A stretch of DNA of 44,234 nucleotides from Escherichia phage vB_EcoS_CEB_EC3a: the sequence record NC_047812.1; one strand, 5' to 3'. Below, one piece after another: positions 894-42,385 of this stretch. The first letter of the stretch is position 1. Each line of letters begins with the position of its first letter. A program made the position numbers and the translations under genes. Below the pieces are notes generated by a model. It saw only the letters and a program-made list of their open reading frames with translations, did no database searches and had not been told where the DNA came from.

Positions 894-1414
894 TGTTTGA
901 CTTTAAAGACAAACTAACAAGCGAGCAGATCATCAATATTGCACGTGCTGATGGTTATCCACTATTGCGAGTTGCAATCAATGCCAATGGATATCGTAGC
1001 TAAAATAAGTTCTGGGGTCAGCCTGATGCGTCAGAAGTATACAAAGATGAGGCGCTTGGGGTTCTGATTAAGCTAATCATGAAAATGGCAAGGAACGGCA
1101 AAGGAGTTGTCGGCATCAGATATCTATATGAAGGTGCTCGCAAGCTGAAACCATTTGCTGGGCGCGATGGAATGATGCTAGTGATCAAGGACAAGCTAAT
1201 TCCAGAGCTCGATAAGATGAATGTTACCTGTCTAATTGGAGATAAGGTTTACGTCAACCCTGCCTTGACGGATTTAAGCTGGCAACCAAACTTCAAAACT
1301 TACGAAGGTGAGCATGCTAGTAGACTACCATACCACTTGCGGTACAGTGAGGGTGAAGTGGAGATGGCTGTCGAGTTCTACCGGAAAGCTAAATCACTCC
1401 TGAACGGTGAATAG
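893..1414 (+). pseudogene. Internally deleted, nonsense-interrupted paralog of the 527-aa ATPase (40729..42312)
   Basis: One reading frame. MFDFKDKLTSEQIINIARADGYPLLRVAINANGYRS then TAA (1001-1003), then ...ARNGKGVVGIRYLYEGARKLKPF...CLIGDKVYVNP. These match the N-terminus (MFDFNEDKLSVEQ...RVAINANGYRQ) and C-terminus (GKNGKGVVGIRSLYEAARKVKPF...CLIGDKVYINP) of the full gene. The Walker core is missing. Confidence 0.7.
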
Positions 1415-1454
1415 CACGGATTGCTAAACAATGGATCGGGTAGTCAGCTATAAT
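1412..1454 (+). promoter_or_regulatory. Dyad-promoter module (TAGCACGGATTGCTA-22 nt-TATAAT)
   Basis: Core 1412-1426, 22-nt spacer, TATAAT 1449-1454, leader TACCACATCGACAAC. Confidence 0.65.
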
Positions 1455-1478
1455 TACCACATCGACAACAAAGAGGAA

Positions 1479-1685
1479 ATGAAGATGAAAACTATGATTA
1501 TCGAAGATTTCGCAGGTGACATCACTGAGGTGTCTGCTTCAGTATATTACGACGGCATCGTGAGCATTGACATTGACACGGATAACTTAGGCGATGAAAT
1601 TACTATGTCTCACTATACACCAGAGCAAGCGCGCAAACTGGCGGCGGCATTAATCATGGCGGCGGAAGAGTCAGAGAAGCAATGA
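1479..1685 (+). CDS. Hypothetical small early protein (68 aa)
   Basis: ORF 1431..1685 overlaps its own -10 box. ATG 1479 follows AAGAGGAA. Confidence 0.7.
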   Translation: MKMKTMIIEDFAGDITEVSASVYYDGIVSIDIDTDNLGDEITMSHYTPEQARKLAAALIMAAEESEKQ

Positions 1686-1698
1686 ATGAGAAATTATA

Positions 1699-1917
1699 AT
1701 GCAAGTATATACGAATAGTAATGGCGTAGAGTATTGTGTTGTTTACGGAGTGGTTCTTCGCACTGTTGGTGGCCTCGGGATCATCAACATTTCAGTGATC
1801 AAGCCTGAATCACTGGTGAAAGGAATCCAGGCCGGAATCTTCAGCTTTCACTCAACGCTGACGGCTAAGCAGTATGTTACCCTCGCCAACGCGGTTAAGT
1901 ACGGTTTTATCAAATAG
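1699..1917 (+). CDS. Hypothetical small early protein (72 aa)
   Basis: ORF track. The stop TAG is the first triplet of the next dyad module. Confidence 0.6.
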   Translation: MQVYTNSNGVEYCVVYGVVLRTVGGLGIINISVIKPESLVKGIQAGIFSFHSTLTAKQYVTLANAVKYGFIK

Positions 1918-1958
1918 CACTTTTTGTTAAAAAGGGGATTCATCCTGACTGGTGTAAT
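1915..1958 (+). promoter_or_regulatory. Dyad-promoter module, variant half-site (TAGCACTTTTTGTTA-23 nt-TGTAAT)
   Basis: Core 1915-1929, TGTAAT 1953-1958, leader CCCCACATCAACCAAAC. Confidence 0.45.
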
Positions 1959-2110
1959 CCCCACATCAACCAAACAAATGGAAGTTAAGTGACCATATAC
2001 GAACATAAATTCAGCAGTAGGGGTATTGATATGCTCCTGCACTATTTAGACGAAAAATACGCAAATCTCATGCTTAAGGCGCATGGTGGAACAATAACGA
2101 GGATTGAGAT

Positions 2111-2371
2111 ATGAGCAAGTACGACCGCGAGATTATTGGTATTGATGGCACAGTAACAACAGTAGATGTTTATCGCGTTCTTGATGCGTTCAGCGTATCT
2201 GACCCAGCCACTCAGCATGCGGTAAAGAAGATGCTTTGTATGGGGTTGCGTGGACACAAGGATTACATAACCGACCTTAACGACTCAATCGAGTCATTAC
2301 AGAAAGCCAAGGAGCTTTACGGGCAAAAGATGATTCATCAATCGGATAAATCAAATCTGCGTGGTAAATAG
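2111..2371 (+). CDS. Hypothetical early protein, DUF3310-like (86 aa)
   Basis: ORF track with SD AACGAGGA. The segment AVKKMLCMGLRGHKDYITDLNDSIESLQKA resembles the DUF3310 family by eye. Stop TAG lies in the next module. Confidence 0.65.
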   Translation: MSKYDREIIGIDGTVTTVDVYRVLDAFSVSDPATQHAVKKMLCMGLRGHKDYITDLNDSIESLQKAKELYGQKMIHQSDKSNLRGK

Positions 2372-2411
2372 CACGAATTGCTAAACCCTCTCCGCAGGGT
2401 TTTGTTATAGT
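2369..2411 (+). promoter_or_regulatory. Dyad-promoter module (TAGCACGAATTGCTA-22 nt-TGtTATAGT)
   Basis: Core 2369-2383, 22-nt spacer, extended -10 at 2403-2411. Confidence 0.7.
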
Positions 2412-2440
2412 TAGTTCACACCAAACGAGAGGAAAAAAAG

Positions 2441-2671
2441 ATGATTACAATTAACCTGTCAGAGAAAGATGCGTCAACACTCAAGCAGCTTCTTTCAGGA
2501 AATCCGGTGCACACTAATGTTTATAACTTTGGTGAAGTAGAAAGGGAGGTTATCGCACAAATAAACAACCAGCAATTCGACGTAAGTGACTTCGAAAGTT
2601 CTAGACAATACGAGGCGATGAGCGTCAATGCTGCATACCTGACCAACTGGGATAAGGCGACTAATAAATGA
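2441..2671 (+). CDS. Hypothetical small early protein (76 aa)
   Basis: ORF track; SD AACGAGAGGA upstream. Confidence 0.7.
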   Translation: MITINLSEKDASTLKQLLSGNPVHTNVYNFGEVEREVIAQINNQQFDVSDFESSRQYEAMSVNAAYLTNWDKATNK

Positions 2672-2994
2672 TTTACATCCACACATATGGCGTAGGCAAG
2701 TTCGGAAAAGAGATTCATCGCACTGTTCACGATACGAAGGAATCAGCCGAAGCAGCACAAAAAGTTCTAGGCGGTGAGTTCAAGGCTTACCGCGAATCCG
2801 ATGACTCAGTTGATTGCTGGCGTGTAGAGCACATGCGAAACGTGCTTGAAAGTGAAGTATCCGAGCTTATAGACAACATGACATGTCACGGCCCAGGCGG
2901 TCCATGGGAGGAGCCAGGATCACCGGAATGGGATTGCGAAAAAGTTGAAACTATGAACAAGATTAGCGATATAATTGATGGTGTTTATCAGTGA
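2668..2994 (+). CDS. Hypothetical early protein (108 aa)
   Basis: ORF track; ATGA overlap with the upstream gene. Confidence 0.7.
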   Translation: MIYIHTYGVGKFGKEIHRTVHDTKESAEAAQKVLGGEFKAYRESDDSVDCWRVEHMRNVLESEVSELIDNMTCHGPGGPWEEPGSPEWDCEKVETMNKISDIIDGVYQ

Positions 2995-3088
2995 TTTTTT
3001 GATAAAATGATGCATCCTTAACGCCTCTTGGCAGCAGAAGGTGCTCGGTGGCACAATCAAGGTTTGCGAGATAATTAAAGAATACAAA

Positions 3089-3131
3089 TAGCACTAATTG
3101 CTAAACCATCATTGGGGTAATTTGTTATAGT
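3089..3131 (+). promoter_or_regulatory. Dyad-promoter module (TAGCACTAATTGCTA-22 nt-TGtTATAGT)
   Basis: Core 3089-3103, TATAGT 3126-3131. Confidence 0.7.
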
Positions 3132-3161
3132 TACCACACCCAAACTAACGAGGTTATAAGA

Positions 3162-3266
3162 ATGAGTGAATTAATTAAAACTATCGCGGACTATCCATTT
3201 GCTTCGCTTTTTCTTGCTCTTGCAATATATGAAATTGTAAAGATTATTGTAAAATGTATTAAATAG
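3162..3266 (+). CDS. Small hydrophobic peptide (34 aa, one predicted TM helix)
   Basis: Hand-translated MSELIKTIADYPFASLFLALAIYEIVKIIVKCIK. SD AACGAGG; stop TAG in the next module. Below the ORF-track size cutoff. Confidence 0.6.
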   Translation: MSELIKTIADYPFASLFLALAIYEIVKIIVKCIK

Positions 3267-3306
3267 CACGAATTTCTAAAACATTATCGGGGTATCTTGC
3301 TATAGT
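3264..3306 (+). promoter_or_regulatory. Dyad-promoter module (TAGCACGAATTTCTA-22 nt-TGcTATAGT)
   Basis: Core 3264-3278, TATAGT 3301-3306. Confidence 0.65.
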
Positions 3307-3336
3307 TACCCCATCAAAACGAAACAGGAAGCAGAA

Positions 3337-3516
3337 ATGAAATTTCAACAAGGCGAGCCAAAGCTACAAGCCAACCACTTCGACGGCTACGCAACATTCA
3401 TCATTGCTCAGGCTTTCGGAATGCGTGAAGACCCACAGGTTCACACCATTCACATGACTGAAGAGCAGGCCCGAGAGTTGGCATACGAAATTCTAGAGCA
3501 ATTGAATAAGATTTAA
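3337..3516 (+). CDS. Hypothetical small early protein (59 aa)
   Basis: Hand-translated MKFQQGEPKLQANHFDGYATFIIAQAFGMRED...; SD CAGGAAGC. Confidence 0.65.
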   Translation: MKFQQGEPKLQANHFDGYATFIIAQAFGMREDPQVHTIHMTEEQARELAYEILEQLNKI

Positions 3517-3567
3517 CGCGCACAAAACGCATTCTTACGAACAATAATTTAAGTAAGGTGATTAATC

Positions 3568-3693
3568 ATGGAAGTGCAAGAGAGCGCCGTAGAGTGGTGC
3601 AAGAGAATGCAGGACGAAGCTAAGACGGGTGAAGAGGCGATGGCTTACTACGAGATGGCGCAAATGTGGATGGAACGGGAGAAGAAAGAATGA
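3568..3693 (+). CDS. Hypothetical small protein (41 aa)
   Basis: Hand-translated MEVQESAVEWCKRMQDEAKTGEEAMAYYEMAQMWMEREKKE; SD AAGGTG. Confidence 0.5.
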   Translation: MEVQESAVEWCKRMQDEAKTGEEAMAYYEMAQMWMEREKKE

Positions 3694-3833
3694 GTTTCAC
3701 TGAATACGTGATCGCATGCGAGCGACTGGTCTTTGATATGAAAACCTTCCACTGGTTCATCATTAAGGATTTAATCAAGCCTTATAAGCAGGGCGTTACG
3801 CCGGAGCGGTTTGTTAAGTCATTTTATAAATAG
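3690..3833 (+). CDS. Hypothetical small protein (47 aa)
   Basis: ATGA overlap with the upstream ORF; stop TAG is in the next module. Confidence 0.5.
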   Translation: MSFTEYVIACERLVFDMKTFHWFIIKDLIKPYKQGVTPERFVKSFYK

Positions 3834-3873
3834 CACGAATTGCTCAACGCAGTCGACACGGATGGCATATAAT
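3831..3873 (+). promoter_or_regulatory. Dyad-promoter module (TAGCACGAATTGCTC-22 nt-TATAAT)
   Basis: Core 3831-3845, TATAAT 3868-3873. Confidence 0.65.
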
Positions 3874-3903
3874 CACCTTACCAACACAACGAGAGATTGA
3901 GAC

Positions 3904-4044
3904 ATGAAGAACACATATAAATTTTATTATGAAGAAGAGTTTGTGGATGATTTAATTTACTTCAATGAGAAATATGGCGACGAGTTCGTCTGCAATGGGG
4001 ATGAAATGGAAGTGACTGCAAGCTTCAGTAGGGGGTTGAATTAA
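3904..4044 (+). CDS. Hypothetical small acidic protein (46 aa)
   Basis: Hand-translated MKNTYKFYYEEEFVDDLIYFNEKYGDEF...; SD AACGAGAGA. Confidence 0.55.
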   Translation: MKNTYKFYYEEEFVDDLIYFNEKYGDEFVCNGDEMEVTASFSRGLN

Positions 4045-4283
4045 TGTTCGGATTATCAGAAGCGCACTTTAACGCAGTTAAACGTCAGGCTGCAAAGTTG
4101 AACGAAGAGTACAGCAAGTTATCGCCAAAGCAGCGCAAGGATGATAAGCAGGTTGCAGCATTGATTTCGAAGATGTGGGAGCCAGTTTTTACAATCATTA
4201 GTCGGGACCGTTTTGTTTGGACTAGCGGATATCTTAAGGGACGTGTTGGTCATGACGAGAATGGGAATAGCCTTTATGAGTAA
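4044..4283 (+). CDS. Hypothetical early protein (79 aa)
   Basis: ORF track; TAATG overlap with the upstream gene. Confidence 0.7.
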   Translation: MFGLSEAHFNAVKRQAAKLNEEYSKLSPKQRKDDKQVAALISKMWEPVFTIISRDRFVWTSGYLKGRVGHDENGNSLYE

Positions 4284-4383
4284 GTTCATCGATTGCGTTA
4301 TTTACACGCTATGCGTAGCGCTGGCTTCGGCTTCGGTTATGTTAATCATTGCGGCGATTATGATGATGTTGGGGTATGTATGA
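4276..4383 (+). CDS. Small hydrophobic peptide (35 aa)
   Basis: Hand-translated MSKFIDCVIYTLCVALASASVMLIIAAIMMMLGYV; overlaps the upstream stop. Confidence 0.4.
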   Translation: MSKFIDCVIYTLCVALASASVMLIIAAIMMMLGYV

Positions 4384-4445
4384 GTGAGTTAACAATCTGG
4401 TTTATCGCGGGGCTGATTACTTGGGCTTACTTTTTAATCGTTTAG
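4380..4445 (+). CDS. Small hydrophobic peptide (21 aa)
   Basis: Hand-translated MSELTIWFIAGLITWAYFLIV; ATGA coupling to the previous micro-ORF. Confidence 0.3.
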   Translation: MSELTIWFIAGLITWAYFLIV

Positions 4446-5680: not shown

Positions 5681-7246
5681 ATGTCTTTAGTATGGGAAGA
5701 AATGACCATTCAGGAAAAGATGGCCGTTAAGGCGATATCAGAACACAGCTTCGAGGGTTTCCTTCGTTGCTGGTTCCAGATTACACAAGGCGAGCGATAC
5801 ATCCCTAACTGGCATCACAAGTACTTGTGCAGAATCATTGATGAGATTATCGCAGGAGATCGCAAGGACACCATCATTAACATAGCACCAGGCAGCGGAA
5901 AGACGGAAATTGCCTCAATCCACTTCCCGGCCTATTCGATGGTTAAGCTTAGGAAGGTGCGCAACCTTAACATCTCTTTTGCTGACTCCCTGGTTAAGCG
6001 TAACTCGAAGCGAGTACGTGACCTTATCAAGTCTCAAGAATTTCAGTCACTCTGGCCATGCAAATTTGGCACCTGCAAAGACGATGAGCTTCAGGTTCTT
6101 GATGAGAGTGGCAAGGTTAGATTTGAGTCAATATCAAAGGCGGCTGGAGGCCAGATTACTGGCGCTCGCGGTGGGTACATAACCGAAACATACAGCGGAG
6201 CCGTTCTTTTGGATGACTTTGACAAACCCGCAGATATGTTATCAGCAGTGTACCGCTCGAATAATCACGTAATGCTTAAAAATACGATTCGCTCACGTCG
6301 AGCCAGTTCTGTAAAAGGCAAAGCGACACCAATCATTTCGATACAGCAGCGGCTTCACGTCAATGACTCAACCTATTTCATGATGGAAGGCGGCATGGGT
6401 ATCGAATTCGATTTGATTAAGATACCAGCATTAGTTACTGAGGATTACCTAGACACACTACCTGAATGGATTAAAGAACAGTTTGAAGAGGATGTCCTTA
6501 GTAGTGAATACATAGAGCGCGATGGAGTAAGGTATTACAGCTACTTCCCTAAAAAGGAGTCAGTCAATGACTTGGTTGCGATGTGGGATAGTGACCCTTA
6601 CACCTTCCTTAGTCAGTATCAACAAGAACCAGTAGCTCTAGGTGGCAACCTTATTAACGTAGATTGGTTCCAGCGCCTTAGCGACACGTTCAGACCTCCA
6701 GCTAAGTACGATTATAGATTTATAACTTGCGATACAGCTATGACTACAAAAAGTTATAGTGACTTCTCTGTCCTTCAATTGTGGGGTTATAAAGATGCTA
6801 AGATTTACCTTATTGACCAGCGCAGGGGGAAATGGGAAGCGCCCGAGTTAGAGGCAGAGTTAATCGATTTCGAGAAGAAATCAAGGGCAACCAGTCAATC
6901 GGATGGTATCCTCCGAAAGATTATCATCGAGAAGAAAGCATCTGGAATCGGACTCATTCAATCAGCAAGTCGAGTCATGAGAACGCCAGTGGAACCTTAT
7001 GTTCCTGATAATGACAAGTTAACAAGGGTGATGAGTGCGCTGCCACAGATTAAGGCTGGTAACGTAGTTCTTCCTGAGTCTGCGCCGTGGTTAAGCGGAT
7101 TGCTTACTGAGATTGCGGCATTTACCGCTGACGACAGCCATAATCACGACGACCAAATTGATACCATGACAATGGCTATCAACCTGGTTCTGAACATTGC
7201 GGATGATCCTAAGTCGAGACTGATGCGCATAGCGGGAATGAAATAG
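5681..7246 (+). CDS. terL: Terminase large subunit
   Basis: 521 aa; Walker A PGSGKTE, Walker B-like VLLDDFDK, C-terminal nuclease-like acidic motifs (HDDQIDT). Position upstream of the portal gene. Confidence 0.9.
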   Translation: MSLVWEEMTIQEKMAVKAISEHSFEGFLRCWFQITQGERYIPNWHHKYLCRIIDEIIAGDRKDTIINIAPGSGKTEIASIHFPAYSMVKLRKVRNLNISFADSLVKRNSKRVRDLIKSQEFQSLWPCKFGTCKDDELQVLDESGKVRFESISKAAGGQITGARGGYITETYSGAVLLDDFDKPADMLSAVYRSNNHVMLKNTIRSRRASSVKGKATPIISIQQRLHVNDSTYFMMEGGMGIEFDLIKIPALVTEDYLDTLPEWIKEQFEEDVLSSEYIERDGVRYYSYFPKKESVNDLVAMWDSDPYTFLSQYQQEPVALGGNLINVDWFQRLSDTFRPPAKYDYRFITCDTAMTTKSYSDFSVLQLWGYKDAKIYLIDQRRGKWEAPELEAELIDFEKKSRATSQSDGILRKIIIEKKASGIGLIQSASRVMRTPVEPYVPDNDKLTRVMSALPQIKAGNVVLPESAPWLSGLLTEIAAFTADDSHNHDDQIDTMTMAINLVLNIADDPKSRLMRIAGMK

Positions 7247-7286
7247 CACAAATTGCTAAACACTAAAGCCACGGATGGCGTATAGT
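7244..7286 (+). promoter_or_regulatory. Dyad-promoter module (TAGCACAAATTGCTA-22 nt-TATAGT)
   Basis: Core 7244-7258 contains the terL stop; TATAGT 7281-7286. Confidence 0.65.
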
Positions 7287-7315
7287 TACTTCACACAAAC
7301 GAGAGGAGAAGAAAG

Positions 7316-7648
7316 ATGAAGGCAGTATTTAAAGGTTATAAAAAAGCTGGTTGTTTGGAATTTACTATTGGTAAGATTTATGAGCTATCAACGGCAACTG
7401 AGGCTTTCGGATTCTTAAAAGTGACTGATGACGATGGATTTAATGGAGTAATTATCCCAGGTGACACCTATGATTTCGAGGTGCTGATTCCAGATGAATT
7501 TATCAATAAAAAAAAGCAATTTAAATATTACATTAATGGCGAAGTGGTTACTAAGACAAAGTTCGATGATACGCTGTTATGCGTCAAGGATTTTAAATCT
7601 GATGGCATTGACACATCATCAATCAAGTTCGAAGTAAAATTCGAGTAA
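7316..7648 (+). CDS. Hypothetical protein (110 aa), moron between terL and portal
   Basis: ORF track. Has its own module promoter and its own terminator, and looks visibly AT-rich. Confidence 0.7.
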   Translation: MKAVFKGYKKAGCLEFTIGKIYELSTATEAFGFLKVTDDDGFNGVIIPGDTYDFEVLIPDEFINKKKQFKYYINGEVVTKTKFDDTLLCVKDFKSDGIDTSSIKFEVKFE

Positions 7649-7670
7649 CCACAAAAGCTATGATAAACTA

Positions 7671-14306: not shown

Positions 14307-14312
14307 ATTGCA

Positions 14313-14355
14313 TAGCACTTTTTGCTAAAGCGTTAATCCAATCTTCCTGTATAGT
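14313..14355 (+). promoter_or_regulatory. Dyad-promoter module (TAGCACTTTTTGCTA-22 nt-TATAGT)
   Basis: Core 14313-14327, TATAGT 14350-14355, leader TAACTCATCGAAACGAAATGAGAG. Confidence 0.65.
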
Positions 14356-14388
14356 TAACTCATCGAAACGAAATGAGAGATTAAAGAA

Positions 14389-14637
14389 ATGAATAACGTT
14401 AAAAACATCATCAAGCTTGCTGCAGTTCTGGTTGCTTTTTATGCAGTGGTTCAGATTGTTAACCCAACTGGTGAGGCTGATGCAAATATCAAGGCAAACA
14501 AATATACTGTTGAGTTCGCTAAAGCTGAGCGAGCATGCCAGGAACTTGTAGGTGGTAAAGTTGACCAAATCATGAAATATGGCAAAGAGGTCTGCAAGGA
14601 CTCGGCTGCTAATATTGCAAAAGAAAACACTAAGTAA
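14389..14637 (+). CDS. Small secreted/membrane-anchored protein (82 aa), moron inside the tail module
   Basis: N-terminus MNNVKNIIKLAAVLVAFYAVVQIV looks like a signal or anchor sequence. Has its own module promoter. Confidence 0.7.
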   Translation: MNNVKNIIKLAAVLVAFYAVVQIVNPTGEADANIKANKYTVEFAKAERACQELVGGKVDQIMKYGKEVCKDSAANIAKENTK

Positions 14638-25282: not shown

Positions 25283-25524
25283 TATTTCCACTCCTTACTG
25301 CCGTGATCTGCAACAGAACCGCCGTAACCGCCACCAGTGGCCTTAATTCCATCGTATCGCACATCAACTTCACCAGCTGGTACAATCACACCATTTTTCC
25401 ATTTAGCTACGCACACGCCGTTTGCTTGGGTTGCACACCATCCATCAGGTCGAGGACCTGAAGAACAACCTACCATCATGATTACTGCTGCGGCGATGAT
25501 TGCTGATTTGATTAAGTTAGTCAT
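25282..25524 (-). CDS. Superinfection-exclusion lipoprotein (Llp/Cor-like)
   Basis: 80 aa. Signal peptide plus lipobox MMVGC|S. Adjacent to the RBP. Confidence 0.7.
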
Positions 25525-25563
25525 TTTGAATTCCTCATTAAGTTGTTTCGTTTCGATGTGGTA

Positions 25564-25606
25564 ATAGTATCGAATCCTTGCGATCAGTGTTTAGCAATTA
25601 GTGCTA
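25564..25606 (-). promoter_or_regulatory. Dyad-promoter module (minus strand) driving lipoprotein and RBP
   Basis: Core 25592-25606, 22-nt spacer, TACTAT (plus-strand ATAGTA 25564-25569), leader TACCACATCGAAACGAAAC. Confidence 0.65.
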
Positions 25607-26251
25607 TTTCTTTTCGAGTAACATCTTGATGTCAATGCCGAGATTATTTTCAATCAATCCAGTCAGTGCATCCGTCTTTTCTTTAAGGGCAAAACACTGA
25701 GCTTCATACTTAAATCTTTCCTCCATCTCGTCAGAGCGACTAACCCAGCACTGGCGAGCCTCGCAAGCCAGCATGTCGAGTTTTTCATCGGTATTCTTAT
25801 CCATGAGTAAGATCTCATTTATTCTTTGCTCTGCAACAATGCGCTGACTAAGGTGTGCATTTTGCGCATTAGCCACACCAAGCATCATTCGCACTTCTTT
25901 TAACTCATCAATGCTTACCATCTGGCTGATTACTTCTTCTTGTTTTTTAACTAATTGCTCAAGCTCATGAAGTCGACGGATAACTTTGTGTCGAAGCACG
26001 ACGCTGTAGCCAGTGATTAGCGTTTCGGTGAGTTCCTTGTTGAGTAAAATCTCAGATGTATAGCCTCGATTGTCTGTAAGTAGTTGATAATCATAATGAC
26101 CCAAATCTGGGGCATCGTTATAATGTAACAATTCATTGATCATTTCCTTTGTGTCGCGAACGACGTGATCATGACGTTTCCCGGTTAACTCTGCGATTTC
26201 CTTTGTGCTCATCATGGTTTTTGGTTGTTCTTTGTACAATTCAATGTTCAT
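25604..26251 (-). CDS. Rha-family phage regulatory protein
   Basis: N-terminus MSTKEIAELTGKRHDHVVRDTKEMI matches the Rha signature. ATG 26251 is preferred because SD AAGAGAG lies 6 nt upstream. Stop TAG is in the next module. Confidence 0.7.
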   Translation of the reverse strand: MNIELYKEQPKTMMSTKEIAELTGKRHDHVVRDTKEMINELLHYNDAPDLGHYDYQLLTDNRGYTSEILLNKELTETLITGYSVVLRHKVIRRLHELEQLVKKQEEVISQMVSIDELKEVRMMLGVANAQNAHLSQRIVAEQRINEILLMDKNTDEKLDMLACEARQCWVSRSDEMEERFKYEAQCFALKEKTDALTGLIENNLGIDIKMLLEKK

Positions 26252-26322
26252 TTTCATCTCTCTTTGGTTTTGTGATACGAAATTTTCGTAGCACAAGCAG
26301 CACCATTGCCGCCATGCGCCTA

Positions 26323-26365
26323 AATATAACTAAAGATAGTCAGTTGTCTTTAGCAATTAGTGCTA
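26323..26365 (-). promoter_or_regulatory. Dyad-promoter module (minus strand) driving rha
   Basis: Core 26351-26365, 22-nt spacer, TATATT (plus-strand AATATA 26323-26328). Confidence 0.6.
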
Positions 26366-26379
26366 TTTATCGCCAATTT

Positions 26380-27051: not shown

Positions 27052-28017
27052 ATGAGCTTTACTGTTTACACACGAGAAGAACTATCAAACTCTGAGTACC
27101 ACTCTGAGACTGATCACATCTCCGGTAGCTCGCTTGTCGAGATTATCCATGGTTCGCCAGCTAAGTGGAAATTCAAACAGCGCAATAATGATAGTAAGGC
27201 TCTTAAATTTGGCACGCTGTCACATACTTACATCCTAGAAGGTGACATGTTTGATAAAGAATTCCTTCGAGCCACAGACCTTGACGCGATTGAAGGCTTA
27301 ATTACAAGCCAGACCGGATTATCGGCAGCGCTGAAAAAAGTTGGCGTTGCTGGCACGTCTGGGAAGGGCTATAGCGAACTTGTAGAGATGATGTATCGCT
27401 CCGGTGAGGATTGGCCTGTTAAGTGGCTAATTGAACAGCAGGAGAGTGCTCAGGCGCTTGTGGAGGGTAGGGAGCTAGTTAGCGCGGCAGACTATGACAA
27501 AGTGGTGGCGATGCGTGAGGTTCTTTGTAATATTCCAGCATATAATGCAATAGTGAACAGCGAGACAGCGCAGAAAGAGCTATCAATCTTTGGTGAGATT
27601 CTCGGCGTCGGCGTGAAGATTCGAATTGACCACGTTGATGTTGTTGATGGTGTGGTGTGTATTACCGATCTGAAAACGACAGCCAGCGCATCACCTCAGG
27701 AGTTTGGGAGACTTGCATTCAAGCATGGGTATCTTGCAAAAATGGCTCTACAGCACGATGTTTTTGTTATGGCTTTTAATGAAAAAAGAAAAACAAAAGT
27801 AAGGCTACTTGCAATCGAGAAAGAGGAGCCTTACCTACCAATGCTTTACAACATTACAGAAGAGCAACTGAAGGTTGGTCGCAGAATGTATTTAGAGGCG
27901 CTTGCCACTTACAAAAAGTGCAAAGAGAATGATGTGTGGCCCGGTTATGCAATGGGCGCAACAGAGATCGACCTAGATGTTCCTGAGTGGGATATGAGGA
28001 AGTATAAAGAAATTTAA
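27052..28017 (+). CDS. PD-(D/E)XK (RecE/RecB-like) recombination exonuclease
   Basis: 321 aa with IRIDHVD...ITDLKTT (D...D-x-K) nuclease core. Directly upstream of an ERF annealase. Confidence 0.7.
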   Translation: MSFTVYTREELSNSEYHSETDHISGSSLVEIIHGSPAKWKFKQRNNDSKALKFGTLSHTYILEGDMFDKEFLRATDLDAIEGLITSQTGLSAALKKVGVAGTSGKGYSELVEMMYRSGEDWPVKWLIEQQESAQALVEGRELVSAADYDKVVAMREVLCNIPAYNAIVNSETAQKELSIFGEILGVGVKIRIDHVDVVDGVVCITDLKTTASASPQEFGRLAFKHGYLAKMALQHDVFVMAFNEKRKTKVRLLAIEKEEPYLPMLYNITEEQLKVGRRMYLEALATYKKCKENDVWPGYAMGATEIDLDVPEWDMRKYKEI

Positions 28018-28018
28018 A

Positions 28019-28061
28019 TAGCACGAATCGCTAAAGACAAAATTAAAAGGTGGGGTATGAT
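28019..28061 (+). promoter_or_regulatory. Dyad-promoter module (TAGCACGAATCGCTA-22 nt-TATGAT)
   Basis: Core 28019-28033, TATGAT 28056-28061. Confidence 0.55.
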
Positions 28062-28090
28062 TACCCAATCAACAACGAACGAGGTTAAAG

Positions 28091-28741
28091 ATGCAAATTT
28101 CAGAATCATGCAAATCAATTTTAAACGCGCTACACACTGCCAAGTCGCTATTTGCGAAGGCTGAAAAGTCGAAGCAGAACTCGCACCTAAAGAACAGATA
28201 CAGTACTCTTGATGATGTTCTTGCTGCTGTGGAGCCTGGCCTTGAAGAATGTGGTCTTGTAATGTTTCAGAGCGTAATTGATAGCGAAGATACTGGACTA
28301 TTAAAGGTTGAGACAAAGTTATTCCATGCGGAGTCAGGTGAGTGGGTTAGCTTCTTAATGATTGTCCCAATCAGCAAGAATGACGCTCAAGGTTACGGAT
28401 CAGCATTAACATACGCTCGACGTTACGGAATCACAGCGGCATTAGGACTTAGCCAGGCAGATGATGATGGAAATCTTGCAGCGAAGGGTGTTAAGGACTT
28501 TAAGCGAGAACTTGAGAAGTGCAATACTCTTGATGAGCTTCGCAATGTCTGGAAAGATGCTAAGCAATCACTTGATGCGGCAGGATGGAAGGTCTTTGAA
28601 CCTCATATTATCGAGCGCAAAGCAGAGATAGAGGCTAATGCAGCAACTGGCTTCAACCCGGCAACACCAAAGAAAGTTGCAGAAAAAAGTAGTCCTGAAG
28701 AAAAGATTGAAGTAGAATCACAACAAATCGACACATTCTAA
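28091..28741 (+). CDS. erf: ERF-family single-strand annealing protein
   Basis: NRYSTLDDVLAAVEP...GYGSALTYARRYGITAALGL is characteristic of the ERF family. Confidence 0.75.
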   Translation: MQISESCKSILNALHTAKSLFAKAEKSKQNSHLKNRYSTLDDVLAAVEPGLEECGLVMFQSVIDSEDTGLLKVETKLFHAESGEWVSFLMIVPISKNDAQGYGSALTYARRYGITAALGLSQADDDGNLAAKGVKDFKRELEKCNTLDELRNVWKDAKQSLDAAGWKVFEPHIIERKAEIEANAATGFNPATPKKVAEKSSPEEKIEVESQQIDTF

Positions 28742-32054: not shown

Positions 32055-32078
32055 TGTGTAAAGTCTCCATTTGTAAAG

Positions 32079-32108
32079 TAGCACTAATTGCTAAAGTGGA
32101 TTGTATCA
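32079..32108 (-). promoter_or_regulatory. Fibre-gene promoter (TGaTACAAT) with the TAGCA dyad placed at about +1 to +15
   Basis: On the minus strand: TGATACAAT (32100-32108), 6 nt, then TAGCAATTAGTGCTA (32079-32093). This is operator-over-start geometry, unlike the other copies. Confidence 0.5.
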
Positions 32109-33593: not shown

Positions 33594-34067
33594 TTACTCT
33601 TTAGCTTTTCGTGCGGCTTCGTTAGCTGCCTTGATCTTTCGCCATGAGCGACACTCTGGTTTAGTTGCTAGCTCAGCCTCAGTAACAACACGCAGCATAT
33701 GACGCTTCTTGCAACGTAGAGTTAGCGGTTTCCCGTTACCGTCGAATTGCAGATCTGGTCGGCAGAATGTAGCGCGAAAACCTTCTCCATTTCGCTTATA
33801 GTAGTTGTGCGACAGCTGGGCGCCGCGCGCAGAAATCATCCCACGCTTAAACCATTCTTCTACAGCCTGAGGTGTCACCTTTAACTGCTTTGCGATATTT
33901 GCCTTTGTGCCGAAGAAATCAAGAACAATCTCCAACCGTGCGCGCAACCCAGCCCTTACCTCGTCTTTTAAAACGTAGTAGCCTGAAGGTCGTTTCCGTT
34001 GTTTTTTGTCTTCAGTACGAATGGTTCCGTTGTTCCCGTTAATTGTTCGCTTGTCTACTGCATTCAT
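33594..34067 (-). CDS. Putative HTH DNA-binding protein (157 aa)
   Basis: HTH-like segment NIAKQLKVTPQAVEEWFKRGMIS; basic termini. Confidence 0.55.
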   Translation of the reverse strand: MNAVDKRTINGNNGTIRTEDKKQRKRPSGYYVLKDEVRAGLRARLEIVLDFFGTKANIAKQLKVTPQAVEEWFKRGMISARGAQLSHNYYKRNGEGFRATFCRPDLQFDGNGKPLTLRCKKRHMLRVVTEAELATKPECRSWRKIKAANEAARKAKE

Positions 34068-34080
34068 TTCATTACCTCAA

Positions 34081-34122
34081 TAGCATTTTTTGTTAAAAGT
34101 CATTCCGATTTAATGTTATTAT
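34081..34122 (+). promoter_or_regulatory. Dyad-promoter module, variant (TAGCATTTTTTGTTA-21 nt-TATTAT) for helicase
   Basis: Core 34081-34095, TATTAT 34117-34122. Confidence 0.5.
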
Positions 34123-34168
34123 TGTACTCAATTAAACGCTACAAGACAATTTTTATAGGAATTTAGAT

Positions 34169-36163
34169 ATGTTGCCTATCGAGAAGCTGGTTGCCAACTT
34201 TGATAAAGAAAGAATTAAACAGATTCAGAAAGATTACCAGTTTGGCGAGATAACCCCTTACGAGTTCCAATGCGTTACATTTGATGCAATTGGGAAGGCT
34301 ATTGGCAAGTATGAGGCTCCATTTATCGCAGACCTCTCGGTATCTGCTGGTAAGACAATCATCCTGGCTATGATTGGTAAGCGCATGGAGCAGCTTGGGC
34401 TTCCTTATATGGTTCTTTCTCGCCAGTCAGAAATTATCAGCCAGAACTCAGAAGAGCTTCGTAATTTCGGCATCCGTAACAGCGTCTATTGCGCTGGCCT
34501 TAACGTTAAATCAGTTTATTACCCAACCATAGTTGCCAGCGAGGGTACGGCTGCTAACGGATTGTTTAAGGGGCTTGGTGACTATGTTCCGGCAGTTATC
34601 GCTATCGATGAATGTCACATGCTTGACACTATGGATATAGTTGAAGCAGAGGAGAACGAAGAAACATTTGAGCAAATGAGCACAAAGAAAGGAGAGATGG
34701 TTTTCAAGGATGGCGTTAACACTGGATTAATCGGTACTGGTCGTTCGCAATACACTCTAATCATTACAGAGATGAAACGACGTTGTCGTGAAAAGTACGG
34801 TCGGGAGCTTCGTATATTCGGCCTTACTGGTAGCCCATATCGTAACAATGACCATATCGTCGTTAGCAATCCAAACATCCGTGGGTTCTGGCGCAAAACA
34901 GTGATCCAGGTCCCAACCAATTACCTTGTTGATTTGGGATTCGTGGTACCTACTGTTTACGGTGAGGTAGGTGATTTGGGTTATGACCTTGCGGAGTTTG
35001 CGCCGGATGGCAGTGATGGTGTGAAAGATTTCAGCAAGAAAGAAATGGATGCTATGCAGGAAAAAATTCATCAAAACCAGTCCATGACTCAAAAGATTAT
35101 GCAGTTCGCAGCCAAGTTTATGGAAACTCGTAACGCAGCACTAGTAACTTGCTCAGGCAAGCGGCATTGCGAGGAAGCAGCCGCGGCGCTTCCTGATGGT
35201 GTAACCTGGGCTATAGTAACTGACTCTACTGGTGAGAAAAAGCGTCGTGAGATTCTTTCTGACGCAGCTGAAGGTAAGTATAAATTCATCTTTCAGATTG
35301 GTTGCCTCACAACCGGCGTGAACGTTCCGACATGGGACACGTCAATAATTCTTCGCAAGGTTGGTAGCATCACGTTACTGATTCAGCTTTTGGGGCGAGG
35401 TATGCGAATTCTTAAGAAGAAGCACAAGGAAATGGGAATGGTTAAGGATGATCACGTGGTGCTGGACTTCGCTGGTACTCTTGATGACATGGCGGAATTG
35501 TACTTTGACCCAATCATAGAGGAAGTGCAGGACCAGAAATTTAAGTATTCACGCAAAGTCGGCGATGAGCCAAGAATATGTCCGGCCTGTAGTTACGAGA
35601 ACTCTCCTTTTGCTCGTCGTTGCAATAACGTAATTGACGGGAAGCGTTGTGAGCATTTTTTTACATTTCGCTTATGTGAAGATATAGAGGACCCGCAGAC
35701 AAAAGTTACTATTAAGAAAGGTTGTGGTGAAAAGAATGATATCGCCGCTAAAAACTGCCGCTGCTGCGGAGAAATGCTTATTGACCCTAACGCAAAATTG
35801 TCTGGAAAGATGTATCGAAAAGGTGATTGGTTGAGAGTTTACGGATTCAGCATTGGATTAACAAAGAACCAAACTGGAATCGTTGCTCGCTATGAAATCA
35901 TGTCGCATAGTGGGGATAGGTTTGTTGCTTACGAAACTTTCTTCCCAGAGAGTGACCATCGAGTTTGCTCTGTAAAATGGAAAGCATTTTGCTCGAGTCA
36001 CATAGAGAACAGGACTGAGGCTTTTAGAATTGGCAGATTGCGTAATGCTAAGATGATTATGACTAATGCTCACCTTTTCCGTGCGCCATTAAGGATTACA
36101 CACCGTAAGAACCAGAAGTCTCAAGATATTATCGCAAACAAATCATTTACTATGGAAGACTGA
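34169..36163 (+). CDS. SF2 (DEAD/DEAH-like) ATP-dependent helicase with C-terminal zinc ribbons
   Basis: Walker A SAGKT, DECH box (AIDECH), TGSP, QLLGRGMR. The C-terminus has CPAC...C...C and CG...CRCC. Confidence 0.85.
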   Translation: MLPIEKLVANFDKERIKQIQKDYQFGEITPYEFQCVTFDAIGKAIGKYEAPFIADLSVSAGKTIILAMIGKRMEQLGLPYMVLSRQSEIISQNSEELRNFGIRNSVYCAGLNVKSVYYPTIVASEGTAANGLFKGLGDYVPAVIAIDECHMLDTMDIVEAEENEETFEQMSTKKGEMVFKDGVNTGLIGTGRSQYTLIITEMKRRCREKYGRELRIFGLTGSPYRNNDHIVVSNPNIRGFWRKTVIQVPTNYLVDLGFVVPTVYGEVGDLGYDLAEFAPDGSDGVKDFSKKEMDAMQEKIHQNQSMTQKIMQFAAKFMETRNAALVTCSGKRHCEEAAAALPDGVTWAIVTDSTGEKKRREILSDAAEGKYKFIFQIGCLTTGVNVPTWDTSIILRKVGSITLLIQLLGRGMRILKKKHKEMGMVKDDHVVLDFAGTLDDMAELYFDPIIEEVQDQKFKYSRKVGDEPRICPACSYENSPFARRCNNVIDGKRCEHFFTFRLCEDIEDPQTKVTIKKGCGEKNDIAAKNCRCCGEMLIDPNAKLSGKMYRKGDWLRVYGFSIGLTKNQTGIVARYEIMSHSGDRFVAYETFFPESDHRVCSVKWKAFCSSHIENRTEAFRIGRLRNAKMIMTNAHLFRAPLRITHRKNQKSQDIIANKSFTMED

Positions 36164-36164
36164 C

Positions 36165-36584
36165 ATGCAAATTACAGACAAAGAAGATTACATTGAGTTT
36201 TACCCAGGCCCGGTTAAGTCGTGTCCGAAAGAGGATGACGAACAAATCTTTTGCTCTGATTGGGTTAAGTATAACTACCCGGAGATGGTATTTTTCCACT
36301 GCGTAAATGAGGGGAAGAAAACCATTGGACAGGCAAGAAAGGACCAGGCTAAAGGGCTCCTTAAAGGCGTGTCAGACTGCATGTTTCTTATTCCCGAGTC
36401 TCTGAGAGGCAAATACCCTTTCGGAGCTATAGAGCTGAAGAGGGCTGGCAAAACTCAGGCTAGCCCAGTCAGTGACGAACAGAAGTCTTTCCTTAAAAGC
36501 GTAAGAGAATCAGGCGGTTTCGCTGGTGTTGCCTACGGGCGCGAGGGTTTTCTTGCGGCATTCAAAGAAATGATTTCAAAATAG
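36165..36584 (+). CDS. VRR-NUC domain nuclease
   Basis: GVSDCMFLIP...GAIELKRAGK (D...E-x-K) and size typical of VRR-NUC. Stop TAG is in the next module. Confidence 0.75.
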   Translation: MQITDKEDYIEFYPGPVKSCPKEDDEQIFCSDWVKYNYPEMVFFHCVNEGKKTIGQARKDQAKGLLKGVSDCMFLIPESLRGKYPFGAIELKRAGKTQASPVSDEQKSFLKSVRESGGFAGVAYGREGFLAAFKEMISK

Positions 36585-36624
36585 CACGAATTGCTAAAGA
36601 CGATTTTAAAAGATGCGATATAGT
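36582..36624 (+). promoter_or_regulatory. Dyad-promoter module (TAGCACGAATTGCTA-22 nt-TATAGT)
   Basis: Core 36582-36596, TATAGT 36619-36624, leader TACCACATCGAAACGAAAC. Confidence 0.7.
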
Positions 36625-36662
36625 TACCACATCGAAACGAAACACATAGAGAGAGAAACAAA

Positions 36663-36857
36663 ATGGCTACTATCTACACTGAAAAACTCTACAAGTCACG
36701 CAAAACTGGTTATGAATATGAATTAGCAATCACCGCTGAGGGTTATATTCTTGATGATGGCGAAGGTTACGCATTCGAAGTTAGCCCGACTTACAAAGAT
36801 GACCTGGAAACTGTTAAAAACGCATTCGGCGAAAAATTTGATGAGGTATCGGAATAA
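36663..36857 (+). CDS. Hypothetical protein (64 aa)
   Basis: ORF track; SD GAGAGAGA. Confidence 0.7.
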   Translation: MATIYTEKLYKSRKTGYEYELAITAEGYILDDGEGYAFEVSPTYKDDLETVKNAFGEKFDEVSE

Positions 36858-38916: not shown

Positions 38917-38959
38917 TAGCACTTTTTGCCTAAAGAATGCCGTAGAAATGCGGCATAAT
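38917..38959 (+). promoter_or_regulatory. Dyad-promoter module, variant (TAGCACTTTTTGCCTA-21 nt-CATAAT)
   Basis: Core 38917-38932 (one extra base), CATAAT 38954-38959, leader TACCACATCGAAAC. Confidence 0.5.
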
Positions 38960-39000
38960 TACCACATCGAAACTAGACAAACAAAACGAGGAAACACAAA

Positions 39001-42312: not shown

Positions 42313-42342
42313 TACTTCTCTCCGTGTTGTTTCTGAGCGGCC

Positions 42343-42385
42343 ATTATATCAACGACCGCTTATAATTCATTATCAATTTGTGCTA
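42343..42385 (-). promoter_or_regulatory. Dyad-promoter module, variant half-site (TAGCACAAATTGATA-22 nt-TATAAT)
   Basis: Core 42371-42385, TATAAT (plus-strand ATTATA 42343-42348). Confidence 0.6.

Follow-up and report, generated by a model that had tools for sequence, protein, structure and literature searches.

Promoter cassettes with a marbox-like core and embedded stop codons, predicted throughout the genome of a T1-like phage

Described systems resembling the repeated module

Promoter-early stem-loop cassettes (PeSLs) of T4-type phages are intergenic elements conserved over about 100 bp (Arbiol et al. 2010, PMC2839356; Comeau et al. 2014, PMC4122927). The window analysed here, the complete genome of an Rtp/T1-like phage (Drexlerviridae; 44,234 nt), contains a repeated module to which an initial annotation had attributed the same architecture. 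This comparison was borne out for the layout (stop, stem-loop, SD, start) but not for the ~100-bp conservation or for a breakpoint excess. As in PeSLs, the intergenic cassette opens with the stop of the upstream gene in an A/T-rich stretch, holds a predicted promoter and a stem-loop, has SD and start codon at its 3' end, and is concentrated among small ORFans; some indels also result in a single cassette at a place where a relative carries a pair. In contrast to PeSLs, which have a consensus sigma-70 -35/-10 pair, the phage modules carry a putative marbox and no -35 element, are conserved as two short blocks (exact identity of at most 21 nt), and show no breakpoint excess over other gene junctions.

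The 21-nt repeat is already known from phage TLS, for which intergenic direct repeats, aaATAGCACnnnTTGnTAAAA, were published with their function left open in the passages concerned (German, Kropinski, Misra et al. 2024, PMC11447400). These passages suggest a stoperator, an enhancer site or a UP element, and report the repeats also in T1, Rtp and Rogue1. The TLS repeats match the modules in sequence, orientation, distance to the start codon (about 76 nt) and A/T/G sub-classes of the central triplet, whereas stop overlap, a fixed -10 spacing, stem-loops and a marbox identity are absent from the same passages. The proposed marbox identity of the core is what is new here.

T4 middle promoters likewise have an activator box, the MotA box, in place of the -35 element before a normal -10, and this box contains TGCT, as does the module core. 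However, MotA/AsiA, which are phage proteins, read a box whose centre lies at -30 and which 11-13 bp separate from the -10, whereas the module box lies near -41, 18 bp from the -10, and a phage activator is not evident. In class II marbox promoters, the site lies forward near -41 and the -10 is canonical, whereas a -35 cannot be recognised (PMC10268841). The E. coli micF promoter belongs to this class, its RamA site being located at about -41 (PMC8811837).

Repeated modules and the stop codons inside them

The genome holds 18 copies of the module, with the pattern aAATAGCACnnWTTGCTAAA-N20-TATAGT-leader-SD-ATG; six lie within 1412-4445 and twelve elsewhere, and the variable arms hold 9 of the 18. 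A search with TAGCACNNNTTGCTAAA at up to three mismatches returned 25 sites against 6.2 expected, a number reached in 0 of 100 shuffles, and 18 of these copies had at most two mismatches. TAGCAC by itself was not enriched in the genome (27 versus 21.8 expected). The modules and associated features are as follows, marboxes and -10 hexamers being predicted elements.

1409..1487, + strand: module 1; marbox 1411-1430 (ATAGCACGGATTGCTAAACA), -10 TATAAT 1449-1454, ATG 1485; TAG 1412-1414 (+) is the stop of ORF 893/1079-1414
1912..1991, + strand: module 2; marbox 1914-1933, -10 TGTAAT 1953-1958 (TATAAT in relatives), GTG 1989; strong hairpin GGGGATT..AATCCCC; TAG is the stop of ORF 1699-1917
2366..2443, + strand: module 3; perfect marbox 2368-2387, -10 TATAGT 2406-2411, ATG 2441; terminator-like hairpin 2383-2402; TAG is the stop of ORF 2111-2371
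3086..3164, + strand: module 4; perfect marbox 3088-3107, -10 3126-3131, ATG 3162 (34-aa ORF)
3261..3339, + strand: module 5; marbox 3263-3282, ATG 3337; hairpin GGGGTA..TACCCC across the -10 (3301-3306); TAG is the stop of ORF 3162-3266
3828..3906, + strand: module 6; marbox 3830-3849, -10 TATAAT 3868-3873, ATG 3904; TAG is the stop of ORF 3690-3833
3904-4044: first gene of module 6, missing in G8 and ZL19
7241..7318, + strand: module 7; perfect marbox 7243-7262, -10 7281-7286, ATG 7316; TAG is the terL stop
14310..14391, + strand: module 8; perfect marbox (ChIP definition) 14312-14331, -10 14350-14355, ATG 14389; preceded by the major tail gene (13622-14278) and its terminator
25522..25609, - strand: module 9; perfect marbox 25607-25588, -10 TACTAT 25569-25564, ATG 25524; TAG 25606-25604 stops rha
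26249..26368, - strand: module 10; marbox 26366-26347, -10 TATATT 26328-26323; predicted rha promoter
28016..28093, + strand: module 11; marbox 28018-28037, -10 TATGAT 28056-28061, ATG 28091 (Erf-like); upstream ORF is exoVIII, stop at -4 (TAAaTAG)
32078..32097, + strand: antisense orphan marbox flanked by two minus-strand genes, tail-fibre and primase; kept in relatives; no -10 found at 18-19 bp
33594..34067, - strand: conserved HTH protein of 157 aa, T1 gp23 / Rtp52 homologue with a weak P22_Cro-type HTH match
34078..34171, + strand: module 13; marbox 34080-34099 (GCAT variant), -10 TATTAT 34117-34122, ATG 34169 (helicase); divergent from the Cro-like regulator gene
36579..36665, + strand: module 14; marbox 36581-36600, -10 36619-36624, ATG 36663; TAG stops VRR-NUC; spacer swapped in PsgS01F and FP
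38914..39003, + strand: module 15; marbox 38916-38935, hairpin GCCG..CGGC, -10 CATAAT 38954-38959, ATG 39001; stop of upstream ORF at -3 (TAATAG)
42310..42388, - strand: module 16; degenerate marbox 42386-42367, ATG 42312; hairpin GCGG..CCGC around the -10 (42348-42343); upstream ORF stop at -4
43144..43221, - strand: module 17; perfect marbox (ChIP definition) 43219-43200, -10 43181-43176, ATG 43146
43976..44051, - strand: module 18; marbox 44049-44030, -10 44010-44005 (gap 21), ATG 43978

The initial annotation had listed ORFs that terminate within the motif, and every stop coordinate proved correct. Five left-arm ORFs end on the module TAG (1412-1414, 1915-1917, 2369-2371, 3264-3266 and 3831-3833), as do terL (5681-7246; stop 7244-7246), VRR-NUC (36165-36584, Pfam; stop 36582-36584) and rha (25604-26296, minus strand, Pfam Phage_pRha; stop 25604-25606). 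The minus-strand ORF 43203-43364 passes the TAG out of frame and ends on the TAA of GCTAAA (43205-43203), and three more ORFs stop at -4 (28019 and, on the minus strand, 42385) or -3 (38917). The upstream stop thus lies inside the module in 12 of 18 cases, eight on the TAG and four at -4, -3 or +13, while no ORF runs into the module at 3089. As only 8.3% of the 987 TAG trinucleotides terminate an ORF of at least 34 aa, the 8/18 module TAGs used as upstream stops exceed chance (binomial P=4.6e-5); they represent 8 of the 14 TAG stops in the genome. The coincidence, whose loss in relatives had been named as a possible refutation, persists across 12 relatives. At 80 dereplicated junctions from 11 genomes, the stop offsets were 0 (27), -4 (14), -3 (7), +13 (9) and none (17).

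Unique modules from 11 genomes gave the logo aAATAGCAC.aaTTGCTAAA-N20-TATa.T, with a -10-like hexamer 20 nt past the AAA in 77 of 111 and at 21 nt in 9. The distance from core to start codon is 70-88 nt. The core is a 5+5 inverted repeat, TAGCA-N5-TGCTA, with one helical turn between half-sites; this palindrome is not a marbox property and could be read by a dimeric protein. The flanks are asymmetric, with AAA on either side, and orientation relative to transcription is strict. About half of the modules have a stem-loop in or near the -10 region, with a mean MFE of -8.8 kcal/mol compared with -4.5 for shuffled sequences (p=2e-12) and -6.3 for random genomic 44-mers (p=1.6e-4). The module was found in 441 phage records, nearly all named for six enterobacterial genera (Escherichia, Klebsiella, Shigella, Enterobacter, Salmonella and Cronobacter).

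The proposal that one module combines stop codon(s), a promoter-like element, a conserved leader and an SD is thus supported, and we regard the repeated ~75-bp modules between small genes as real promoter cassettes, with promoter activity predicted from their sequence. The statement that nearly every small gene is a self-contained unit was overstated: there are six modules for ~14 genes in 1412-4445, and the units are therefore mini-operons of 1-3 genes.

A repressive or titrating role of the cores, either as stoperator-like roadblocks for a phage repressor or as MarA/SoxS/Rob decoys that blunt the host stress response, appears highly improbable. The strict 20-21 nt spacing to the -10 and the 70-88 nt to the start codon are promoter traits that neither roadblock nor decoy would need, and the sites precede the predicted transcription start rather than lying within transcribed regions. 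Such a role would nevertheless fit the orphan, antisense core at 32078-32097 and the stoperator analogy raised in the TLS passages (PMC11447400), and many genome copies with ~18 consensus sites each could bind a large part of the activator molecules in a cell.

The core as a candidate marbox and the geometry of the promoter

The conserved core appears to be a marbox that fits the consensus perfectly, the class of site bound by the host proteins MarA, SoxS and Rob, and would be expected to bind them. The classic consensus AYnGCACnnWnnRYYAAAY, at up to one mismatch, recovered 13 cores against 1.03 expected. With the published definition gcannwwntgnnaaa (PMC12052159), 12 perfect matches were found in the window, all of them module cores, compared with 0.97 expected and a maximum of 4 in shuffles. 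Perfect sites number 11-20 per genome, both in the window and in every one of the 12 relatives examined, and most of them are followed by TAnnnT at 18-21 nt. The variable NNN triplet of the core coincides with degenerate marbox positions, its third base always being A or T (W), and the marRAB marbox, read as ATGCCACGTTTTGCTAAATC, is identical to T-class cores at 15 of 18 positions.

The core is oriented forward, 20 nt before a canonical -10 hexamer and without a -35 element, and in micF, too, exactly 20 nt separate the AAA of the marbox from the -10 hexamer. A sigma-70 -35/-10 scan was passed by only 2 of 7 left-arm modules. The core was also considered as a sigma-70 -35 box and rejected, TTGCTA lying 22 nt from the -10. 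Relative to the predicted transcription start site, the geometry is that of a class II marbox promoter: an asymmetric 20-bp site that fits both published consensus forms lies forward, centred near -41 over the -35 region, before a canonical -10 with no recognisable -35. In contrast to class II marbox promoters of enterobacteria, the modules belong to a virulent phage, and nearly every promoter predicted in its genome has one. The phage cores are also perfect relative to the consensus, whereas up to two mismatches were needed for known host sites to be recovered (PMC12052159). Finally, additional conserved bases that a marbox does not require, namely A3, T11 and the AAA upstream, serve as stop codons as well.

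We propose, with a probability of roughly 0.6, that host MarA/SoxS/Rob drive most of the phage promoters through marbox cassettes. The hosts after which the module-bearing phages are named (Escherichia, Klebsiella and others) encode MarA, SoxS, Rob or RamA. Against the proposal, T1-like phages multiply fast in unstressed laboratory cells, in which MarA and SoxS are scarce and Rob is reportedly mostly sequestered. A literature search on T1-like phages found no TSS map, binding assay or host-mutant data.

It is also conceivable, albeit unlikely, that the modules are promoters whose core is read by a phage factor, such as a Cro-like HTH dimer, or acts as a UP-like/alpha-CTD element, the marbox likeness being incidental or host binding being without consequence. 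A tblastn search with MarA and SoxS queries gave no match at E<1, and among 39 small ORFs Pfam detected no HTH of the AraC type; on the phage side, the sole candidate for binding the core is the 157-aa HTH protein (33594-34067), which is present in all relatives and has a weak P22_Cro match. Its gene has an apparent canonical sigma-70 promoter of its own, TTGTCT-17-TACAAT, and the regulator could therefore be made first. An inverted repeat of 5+5 at about -42, with half-sites one helical turn apart, the conservation of positions beyond marbox requirements and the enhancer or UP-element roles suggested in the TLS passages (PMC11447400) would suit such a factor. However, asymmetric flanks and strict orientation are more in keeping with a monomeric, asymmetric site than with the operator of a dimer, the conservation profile tracks the marbox position by position, degenerate triplet included, and the spacing to the -10 is that of micF. 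A phage activator needed at 17 promoters would also pose a bootstrap problem for the earliest genes.

If host activators read the cassettes, the region 1412-4445 would be a string of six compact transcription units, each opened by a ~75-bp cassette. The cassette runs from an A-tract through the putative marbox ATAGCACnnWTTGCTAAAnn (20 bp, forward, centred near -41 relative to the predicted start site) and an 18-bp spacer without a -35 box, often with a GC-rich inverted repeat, to a canonical -10 TATAGT, the conserved leader CATCGAAACGA with its SD, and the start codon. As at class II promoters of enterobacteria, a monomer of MarA, SoxS or Rob (RamA in Klebsiella) over the -35 region would recruit sigma-70 RNA polymerase. 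As the genome is tightly packed, the preceding ORF continues straight into the cassette and terminates in its 5' end on the TAG (marbox positions 2-4), on a TAA of the (T)AAATAG flank (-4 or -3), or on the TAA in GCTAAA; jointly, these stops close all three reading frames upstream of hairpin and -10. The stem-loops would probably attenuate read-through from upstream units, so that each unit would be insulated.

Gene gain and loss at module borders

The initial annotation had proposed PeSL-like mobile cassettes, conserved chiefly as homology for recombination that shuffles ORFs. Breakpoints are indeed enriched 3-7 times at modules relative to random positions (14 sites versus 2.0 expected in cores, 14 versus 4.3 in the module 3' part), but not relative to module-less gene junctions, which are themselves 4.7-fold over random: 15/18 module and 35/55 module-less junctions carry breakpoints (Fisher p=0.15), or 14/17 and 27/37 outside the structural block (p=0.52). 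Because the core is conserved for function, HSP ends are expected at module edges anyway. Among the ~30 clean indels, ~17 have no module at either end and only 3-4 are module-to-module events; a module is present at one or both ends in 43%, compared with 42% expected from the share of module-bearing junctions. Nor are the repeated homology tracts that had been envisaged supported: the exact tract shared by two modules is at most 21 nt (median 10) and no module pair reaches 70% identity over 105 nt.

Both units singled out as module-bounded within the structural block are variable. The first, 7244-7692, is a genuine presence/absence cassette, which 6 of 11 relatives lack (BEK1-1, A110b, DTL, FP, MM01 and 12469II):

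7248..7652, + strand: presence/absence cassette made up of module 7, except for its first bases, and the 110-aa ORF 7316-7648

This terL-portal cassette is joined through only 3-7 nt of microhomology (junction AAATAGC|..AAAAGC|), and terL ends in AAATAG in five of the relatives that lack it, even with no module there, and in AAATAA in 12469II. In the second unit, 14313-14637, Rtp and MM01 have a different gene downstream of module 14313.

Recombination as the chief reason for conservation thus seems quite doubtful, in spite of the matching PeSL layout, the 9/18 modules in variable arms and the ExoVIII and Erf-type annealing protein encoded by the phage. The cassettes are not special gene-shuffling hot spots, and shuffling is only partly supported; the conservation of the modules appears better explained by marbox function than by recombination. 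The cassettes sit at gene-cassette borders and recombine with each other now and then, and gene gain and loss in the phage group occurs at gene boundaries generally, without preference for modules. A few module-to-module events are seen, at the rha cassette (about 25608-26396), which T145P1 and FP lack and which is replaced in PsgS01F, and at 38917, where HNH or pnk cassettes between two modules are inserted in G8, DTL, BEK1-1 and PsgS01F; both loci have two-module and one-module alleles. The same spacer families also recur in unrelated contexts, and in the VRR-NUC module the spacer is swapped while the flanks are unchanged.

The module core and its match to the marbox

This analysis revealed that the core of the repeated module, a unit of about 75 bp comprising core, spacer, -10, leader, SD and start codon, matches the marbox, and that binding of host MarA, SoxS and Rob to it can be predicted. 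The marbox is the asymmetric site of these monomeric activators and is searched for with the pattern gcannwwntgnnaaa (PMC12052159). Perfect matches to this pattern number 12 in the window, all of them module cores, where 0.97 were expected and the shuffle maximum was 4. The classic consensus, reportedly given by Martin et al. in 1999, is AYnGCACnnWnnRYYAAAY; it fits 13 cores with at most one mismatch, against 1.03 expected. The variable triplet of the module coincides with degenerate positions of the marbox; its third base, A or T without exception, agrees with the consensus W. When the marRAB marbox is read as ATGCCACGTTTTGCTAAATC, 15 of its 18 positions agree with the T-class phage cores. 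Perfect sites number 11-20 per genome in the window and 12 relatives, most of them with TAnnnT 18-21 nt downstream.

The 21-nt repeat itself is already known from phage TLS; what the 2024 paper left open is its function. That re-annotation (PMC11447400) describes 18 intergenic 21-nt direct repeats with the consensus aaATAGCACnnnTTGnTAAAA, co-directional with transcription and ~76 nt upstream of start codons, which its authors also report in T1, Rtp and Rogue1; they consider a stoperator, an enhancer site or a UP element and name the function as an open question. The modules of the window conform to aaATAGCACnnnTTGnTAAAA and are likewise intergenic, co-directional and placed ~76 nt before the start codon (core-to-start-codon distance 70-88 nt; 114 nt for rha). 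The 17-mer TAGCACNNNTTGCTAAA occurs 25 times with at most 3 mismatches (6.2 expected), and its 18 copies with at most 2 mismatches are the module set, while TAGCAC by itself is not enriched in the window (27 against 21.8 expected). Seventeen of the 18 copies are co-directional with transcription, the sole exception being an antisense orphan:

32078-32097, plus strand: orphan consensus marbox in antisense, flanked by the minus-strand tail-fibre and primase genes

This orphan adjoins the primase terminator and lacks a -10 at the spacing of class II sites, and every relative examined retains it. An antisense promoter and a regulatory site are both conceivable roles. In phage SU57, BPROM-based 'promoter' features coincide with the same repeat element. 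The module was found in 441 phage records, nearly all named for Escherichia, Klebsiella, Shigella, Enterobacter, Salmonella or Cronobacter. These hosts possess MarA, SoxS, Rob and RamA. The literature search found no paper connecting marboxes to T1-like phages and no usable T1-like TSS or transcriptome data.

With regard to promoter architecture, class II marbox promoters carry a forward site that overlaps the -35 region, near -41, and combine a canonical -10 with the lack of a recognisable -35 (PMC12052159, PMC8811837, PMC10268841). [quoted passage not shown] In micF, the class II model promoter (PMC8811837), the MG1655 marbox ACAGCACTGAATGTCAAAAC is separated by exactly 20 nt, counted from its AAA, from the -10 TAGAAT, and the same gap is found in the phage modules. 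The module logo reads aAATAGCAC.aaTTGCTAAA-N20-TATa.Ttacc.cAt..aaAc, and of 111 unique modules, 77 have the -10-like TAnnnT, a predicted hexamer rather than a mapped TSS, 20 nt past the core AAA and 9 have it 21 nt past. The hexamer is TATAGT or TATAAT. TTGCTA, being 22 nt away from it, was rejected as a -35 box. Of the seven left-arm modules, only two are detected by a standard -35/-10 scan, and the stretch 1-8000 has 14 sigma-70-type matches, compared with 15.8 in shuffles. An analogy with the T4 MotA box was ruled out by the spacing, which is 18 bp here as opposed to 11-13 bp.

The region spanning spacer and -10 folds more stably than its controls, with a mean MFE of -8.8 kcal/mol compared with -4.5 for shuffled sequences (p=2e-12) and -6.3 for random genomic 44-mers (p=1.6e-4). 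An MFE of -9 kcal/mol or lower is reached by 44% of modules, 6% of shuffled sequences and 21% of genomic controls, and a stem-loop is present in only about half of the module copies. Certain spacers consist of a hairpin followed by a T-run, as at 2383-2402. Rfam identified no known RNA family in the modules, its sole matches being two tRNA. The leader TTACCaCATCGAAACGA, located ~8-25 nt past the -10 in all modules, is conserved beyond the needs of the SD; each transcript starting at a module would carry it at the 5' end, where it might have a role in transcript stability, processing or translation. Module 1915 carries TGTAAT at 1953-1958, where relatives show TATAAT. With the otherwise invariant A2 of its -10 hexamer gone, the predicted promoter may be weakened in this phage.

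The main rival explanation is that the core is read as a palindrome by a factor of the phage itself, for example the Cro-like protein of 157 aa. As for a phage-encoded activator of the MarA type, tblastn with MarA and SoxS gave no match to the phage at E<1, and no AraC-type HTH was present among the 39 small ORFs searched by Pfam. The Cro-like regulator gene lies on the minus strand and has, in the region 34068-34170, an apparent canonical sigma-70 promoter (TTGTCT-17-TACAAT). This promoter is divergent from the helicase module, whose marbox is found inside the 5' leader of the regulator, and cross-regulation between the two is possible.

The best-supported mechanism is that each module would act as a short and insulated promoter cassette of the class II marbox type, using host MarA/SoxS/Rob; its promoter activity, start site and activator binding are predicted from sequence. 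We assign a probability of roughly one half to the broader reading that Drexlerviridae (T1, TLS, Rtp and the Klebsiella T1-like phages), a whole family of virulent enterobacterial phages, transcribe mostly from consensus class II marboxes, that their expression is driven by and tuned to the host MarA/SoxS/Rob/RamA antibiotic and stress activators, and that the 'free' marbox positions are fixed so that each cassette closes upstream frames. This marbox reading offers a concrete, testable mechanism for repeats whose role in T1-like phages was an open question in 2024. If true, it would tie the productivity of very common coliphages and Klebsiella phages to multidrug-resistance regulators and explain how these phages manage without a polymerase, a sigma factor or recognisable -35 boxes of their own. 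Mutations in mar, sox, rob or ram, or inducers such as salicylate, bile salts and antibiotics, would then be predicted to alter phage expression, which would matter for combining phages with antibiotics and for the ways in which phage resistance arises.

Stop codons within the modules

The initial annotation reported that upstream ORFs end inside the next module, and this observation is right and family-wide. All stops that it listed were correct: the TAG of the module core, by whose position each module is named, ends the upstream ORF at 1412, 1915, 2369, 3264, 3831, 7244 (terL), 36582 (VRR-NUC) and 25606- (rha), and the ORF at 43203-43364 on the minus strand ends on the TAA of GCTAAA. Three more ORFs end at offset -4 or -3 from the module TAG, giving in-module stops for 12 of 18 modules. 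Genes were called with a strand-block caller followed by hand curation using the annotation of relatives, and the genes upstream of modules were assigned by a run-in ORF rule. The coincidence of stop and TAG is beyond chance, because just 8.3% of TAGs end an ORF of at least 34 aa, whereas 8 of the 18 module TAGs do so (P=4.6e-5); these represent 8 of the 14 TAG stops of the genome. The coincidence persists in relatives: at the 80 dereplicated junctions taken from 11 genomes, the stop offsets were 0 (27), -4 (14), -3 (7), +13 (9) and none (17). The depiction of nearly every small gene as its own unit was overstated, with six modules per about 14 genes in 1412-4445. Module 14313 also has an 87-aa ORF that ends on its TAG, but this ORF was considered spurious: the true upstream gene ends 35 nt before, behind a terminator.

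The extended consensus (T)AAATAGCAC...GCTAAA places TAA at -4, TAG at 0 and TAA at +13, so that each of the three frames meets a stop before the hairpin and the -10. The cassette could also serve as a ready-made plan for a small, insulated expression unit, which in ~75 bp would comprise a three-frame stop, an activator site, an attenuator hairpin, a -10, a leader and an SD. The TAG occupies marbox positions 2-4 (Y, n, G), and it is kept in 24/24 and 30/33 modules with an incoming ORF, compared with 14/24 modules without one. That marbox-neutral positions are partly maintained by the stop function is only suggestive, because the modules without an incoming ORF are more degenerate overall. The simplest reading of the stops is genome compaction, with ORFs extending to the next functional element, in the same manner as ORFs overlap start codons (ATGA, TAATG) at module-less junctions.

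Breakpoints at modules and comparison with PeSL cassettes

It had also been suggested that the modules mediate gene shuffling. The blastn comparison of the window with 11 relatives yielded 134 distinct homology breakpoints, including 14 at cores (2.0 expected), 14 in the 3' part of modules (4.3 expected), 40 at module-less gene junctions (8.4 expected) and 53 within genes (115 expected). Breakpoints are enriched at modules over random positions but not over other gene junctions: 15 of 18 junctions with a module were broken in at least one relative, compared with 35 of 55 module-less ones (Fisher p=0.15), and outside the structural block these figures were 14/17 and 27/37 (p=0.52). An excess in the number of relatives with a breakpoint per junction (4.4 vs 2.4, p=0.016) was discounted because the module junction windows are ~3x wider and contain two gene edges. 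HSP ends at module edges are expected in any case, because the core is conserved for function. Of ~30 clean indel loci, 3-4 had modules at both ends, ~10 at one end and ~17 at none; the 43% with at least one module end equals the prediction from the 24% of junctions that carry modules. With regard to phage evolution, this negative result indicates that single-gene mosaicism here needs no repeated promoter cassettes.

Examples of indels from module to module are the rha locus and, at 38917, the HNH and pnk cassettes. Six relatives lack the terL-portal unit (7248-7652); the junction of this unit, AAATAGC|...AAAAGC|, consists of microhomology only, and terL ends with AAATAG even in relatives without the module. 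To some extent, the modules exchange with one another: spacer families reappear in unrelated contexts, and in PsgS01F and FP the VRR-NUC module carries a different spacer between unchanged flanks. The modules had further been described as repeated homology tracts; shared exact tracts do exist, but they are small (at most 21 nt, median 10), and over 105 nt every pair of modules stays below 70% identity. The single module of T145P1 was not convincing as a simple chimera of the two rha-flanking modules of the window.

Genes for HNH homing endonucleases are frequent cassette contents. The window carries the following:

33062-33541, minus strand: HNH gene between the regulator and primase genes, missing in G8

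Other HNH genes are found in relatives (genomes L003, L008, L009, L004 and L011) at the terS/terL, tail L/K and exonuclease/holin junctions, and several of the relatives' HNH genes have their own marbox module at the left edge.

The likeness to PeSL, the promoter-early stem-loop cassettes of T4-type phages, holds for the layout but neither for the defining -35 box nor for preferential breakpoints. The modules have an upstream stop codon at one end and an SD with start codon at the other, as PeSLs do, and a stable stem-loop in or beside the promoter is present in about half of them. In contrast to the strong consensus sigma-70 promoter of PeSLs with both boxes, the modules have a -10 and no -35 at 16-18 nt. 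PeSLs are described as conserved over about 100 bp, a length open to homologous exchange, and as forming mini-circles, and 10 of 14 differential ORFans adjoin a PeSL. The exact tracts shared by modules do not exceed 21 nt, and insertions, deletions and replacements among the relatives of the window do not favour modules as their borders over other gene junctions.

Relatives, host labels and minor sequence features

The window is collinear over its full length with complete Rtp/T1-like genomes (Drexlerviridae, subfamily Braunvirinae), and the comparison set consisted of 12 relatives and T1. Its closest records are PsgS01F and UALMA_PCEc3, at about 93% identity, followed by vB_Ec-G8, BEK1-1, DTL, the vB_EcoS-12210I group, ZL19 and Rtp. 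PP134917 (L002, 'Pseudomonas phage PsgS01F') and MG065688 (L005, 'Campylobacter phage A110b') are 84-93% identical to coliphages, and their genomes bear the same putative enterobacterial marbox-type promoters as the window. The hosts stated for these two records, Pseudomonas and Campylobacter, look doubtful.

The ORF at 893-1414 is split by an in-frame TAA at 1001-1003, and its counterpart in PsgS01F, CDS0022, is an intact 174-aa gene; either the TAA is a nonsense mutation, or the gene is truly split, or the sequence is in error at this point. A second tRNA-like element at 4746-4844 gave an Rfam match of 41 bits, was not called by ARAGORN and is annotated in PsgS01F as a 99-nt tRNA-Ile; the bulk of it (4740-4823) is missing in five relatives. 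Simple AT repeats, (TA)n and then (ATT)n, are located at 100-150, near the left end of the window and upstream of the first genes.
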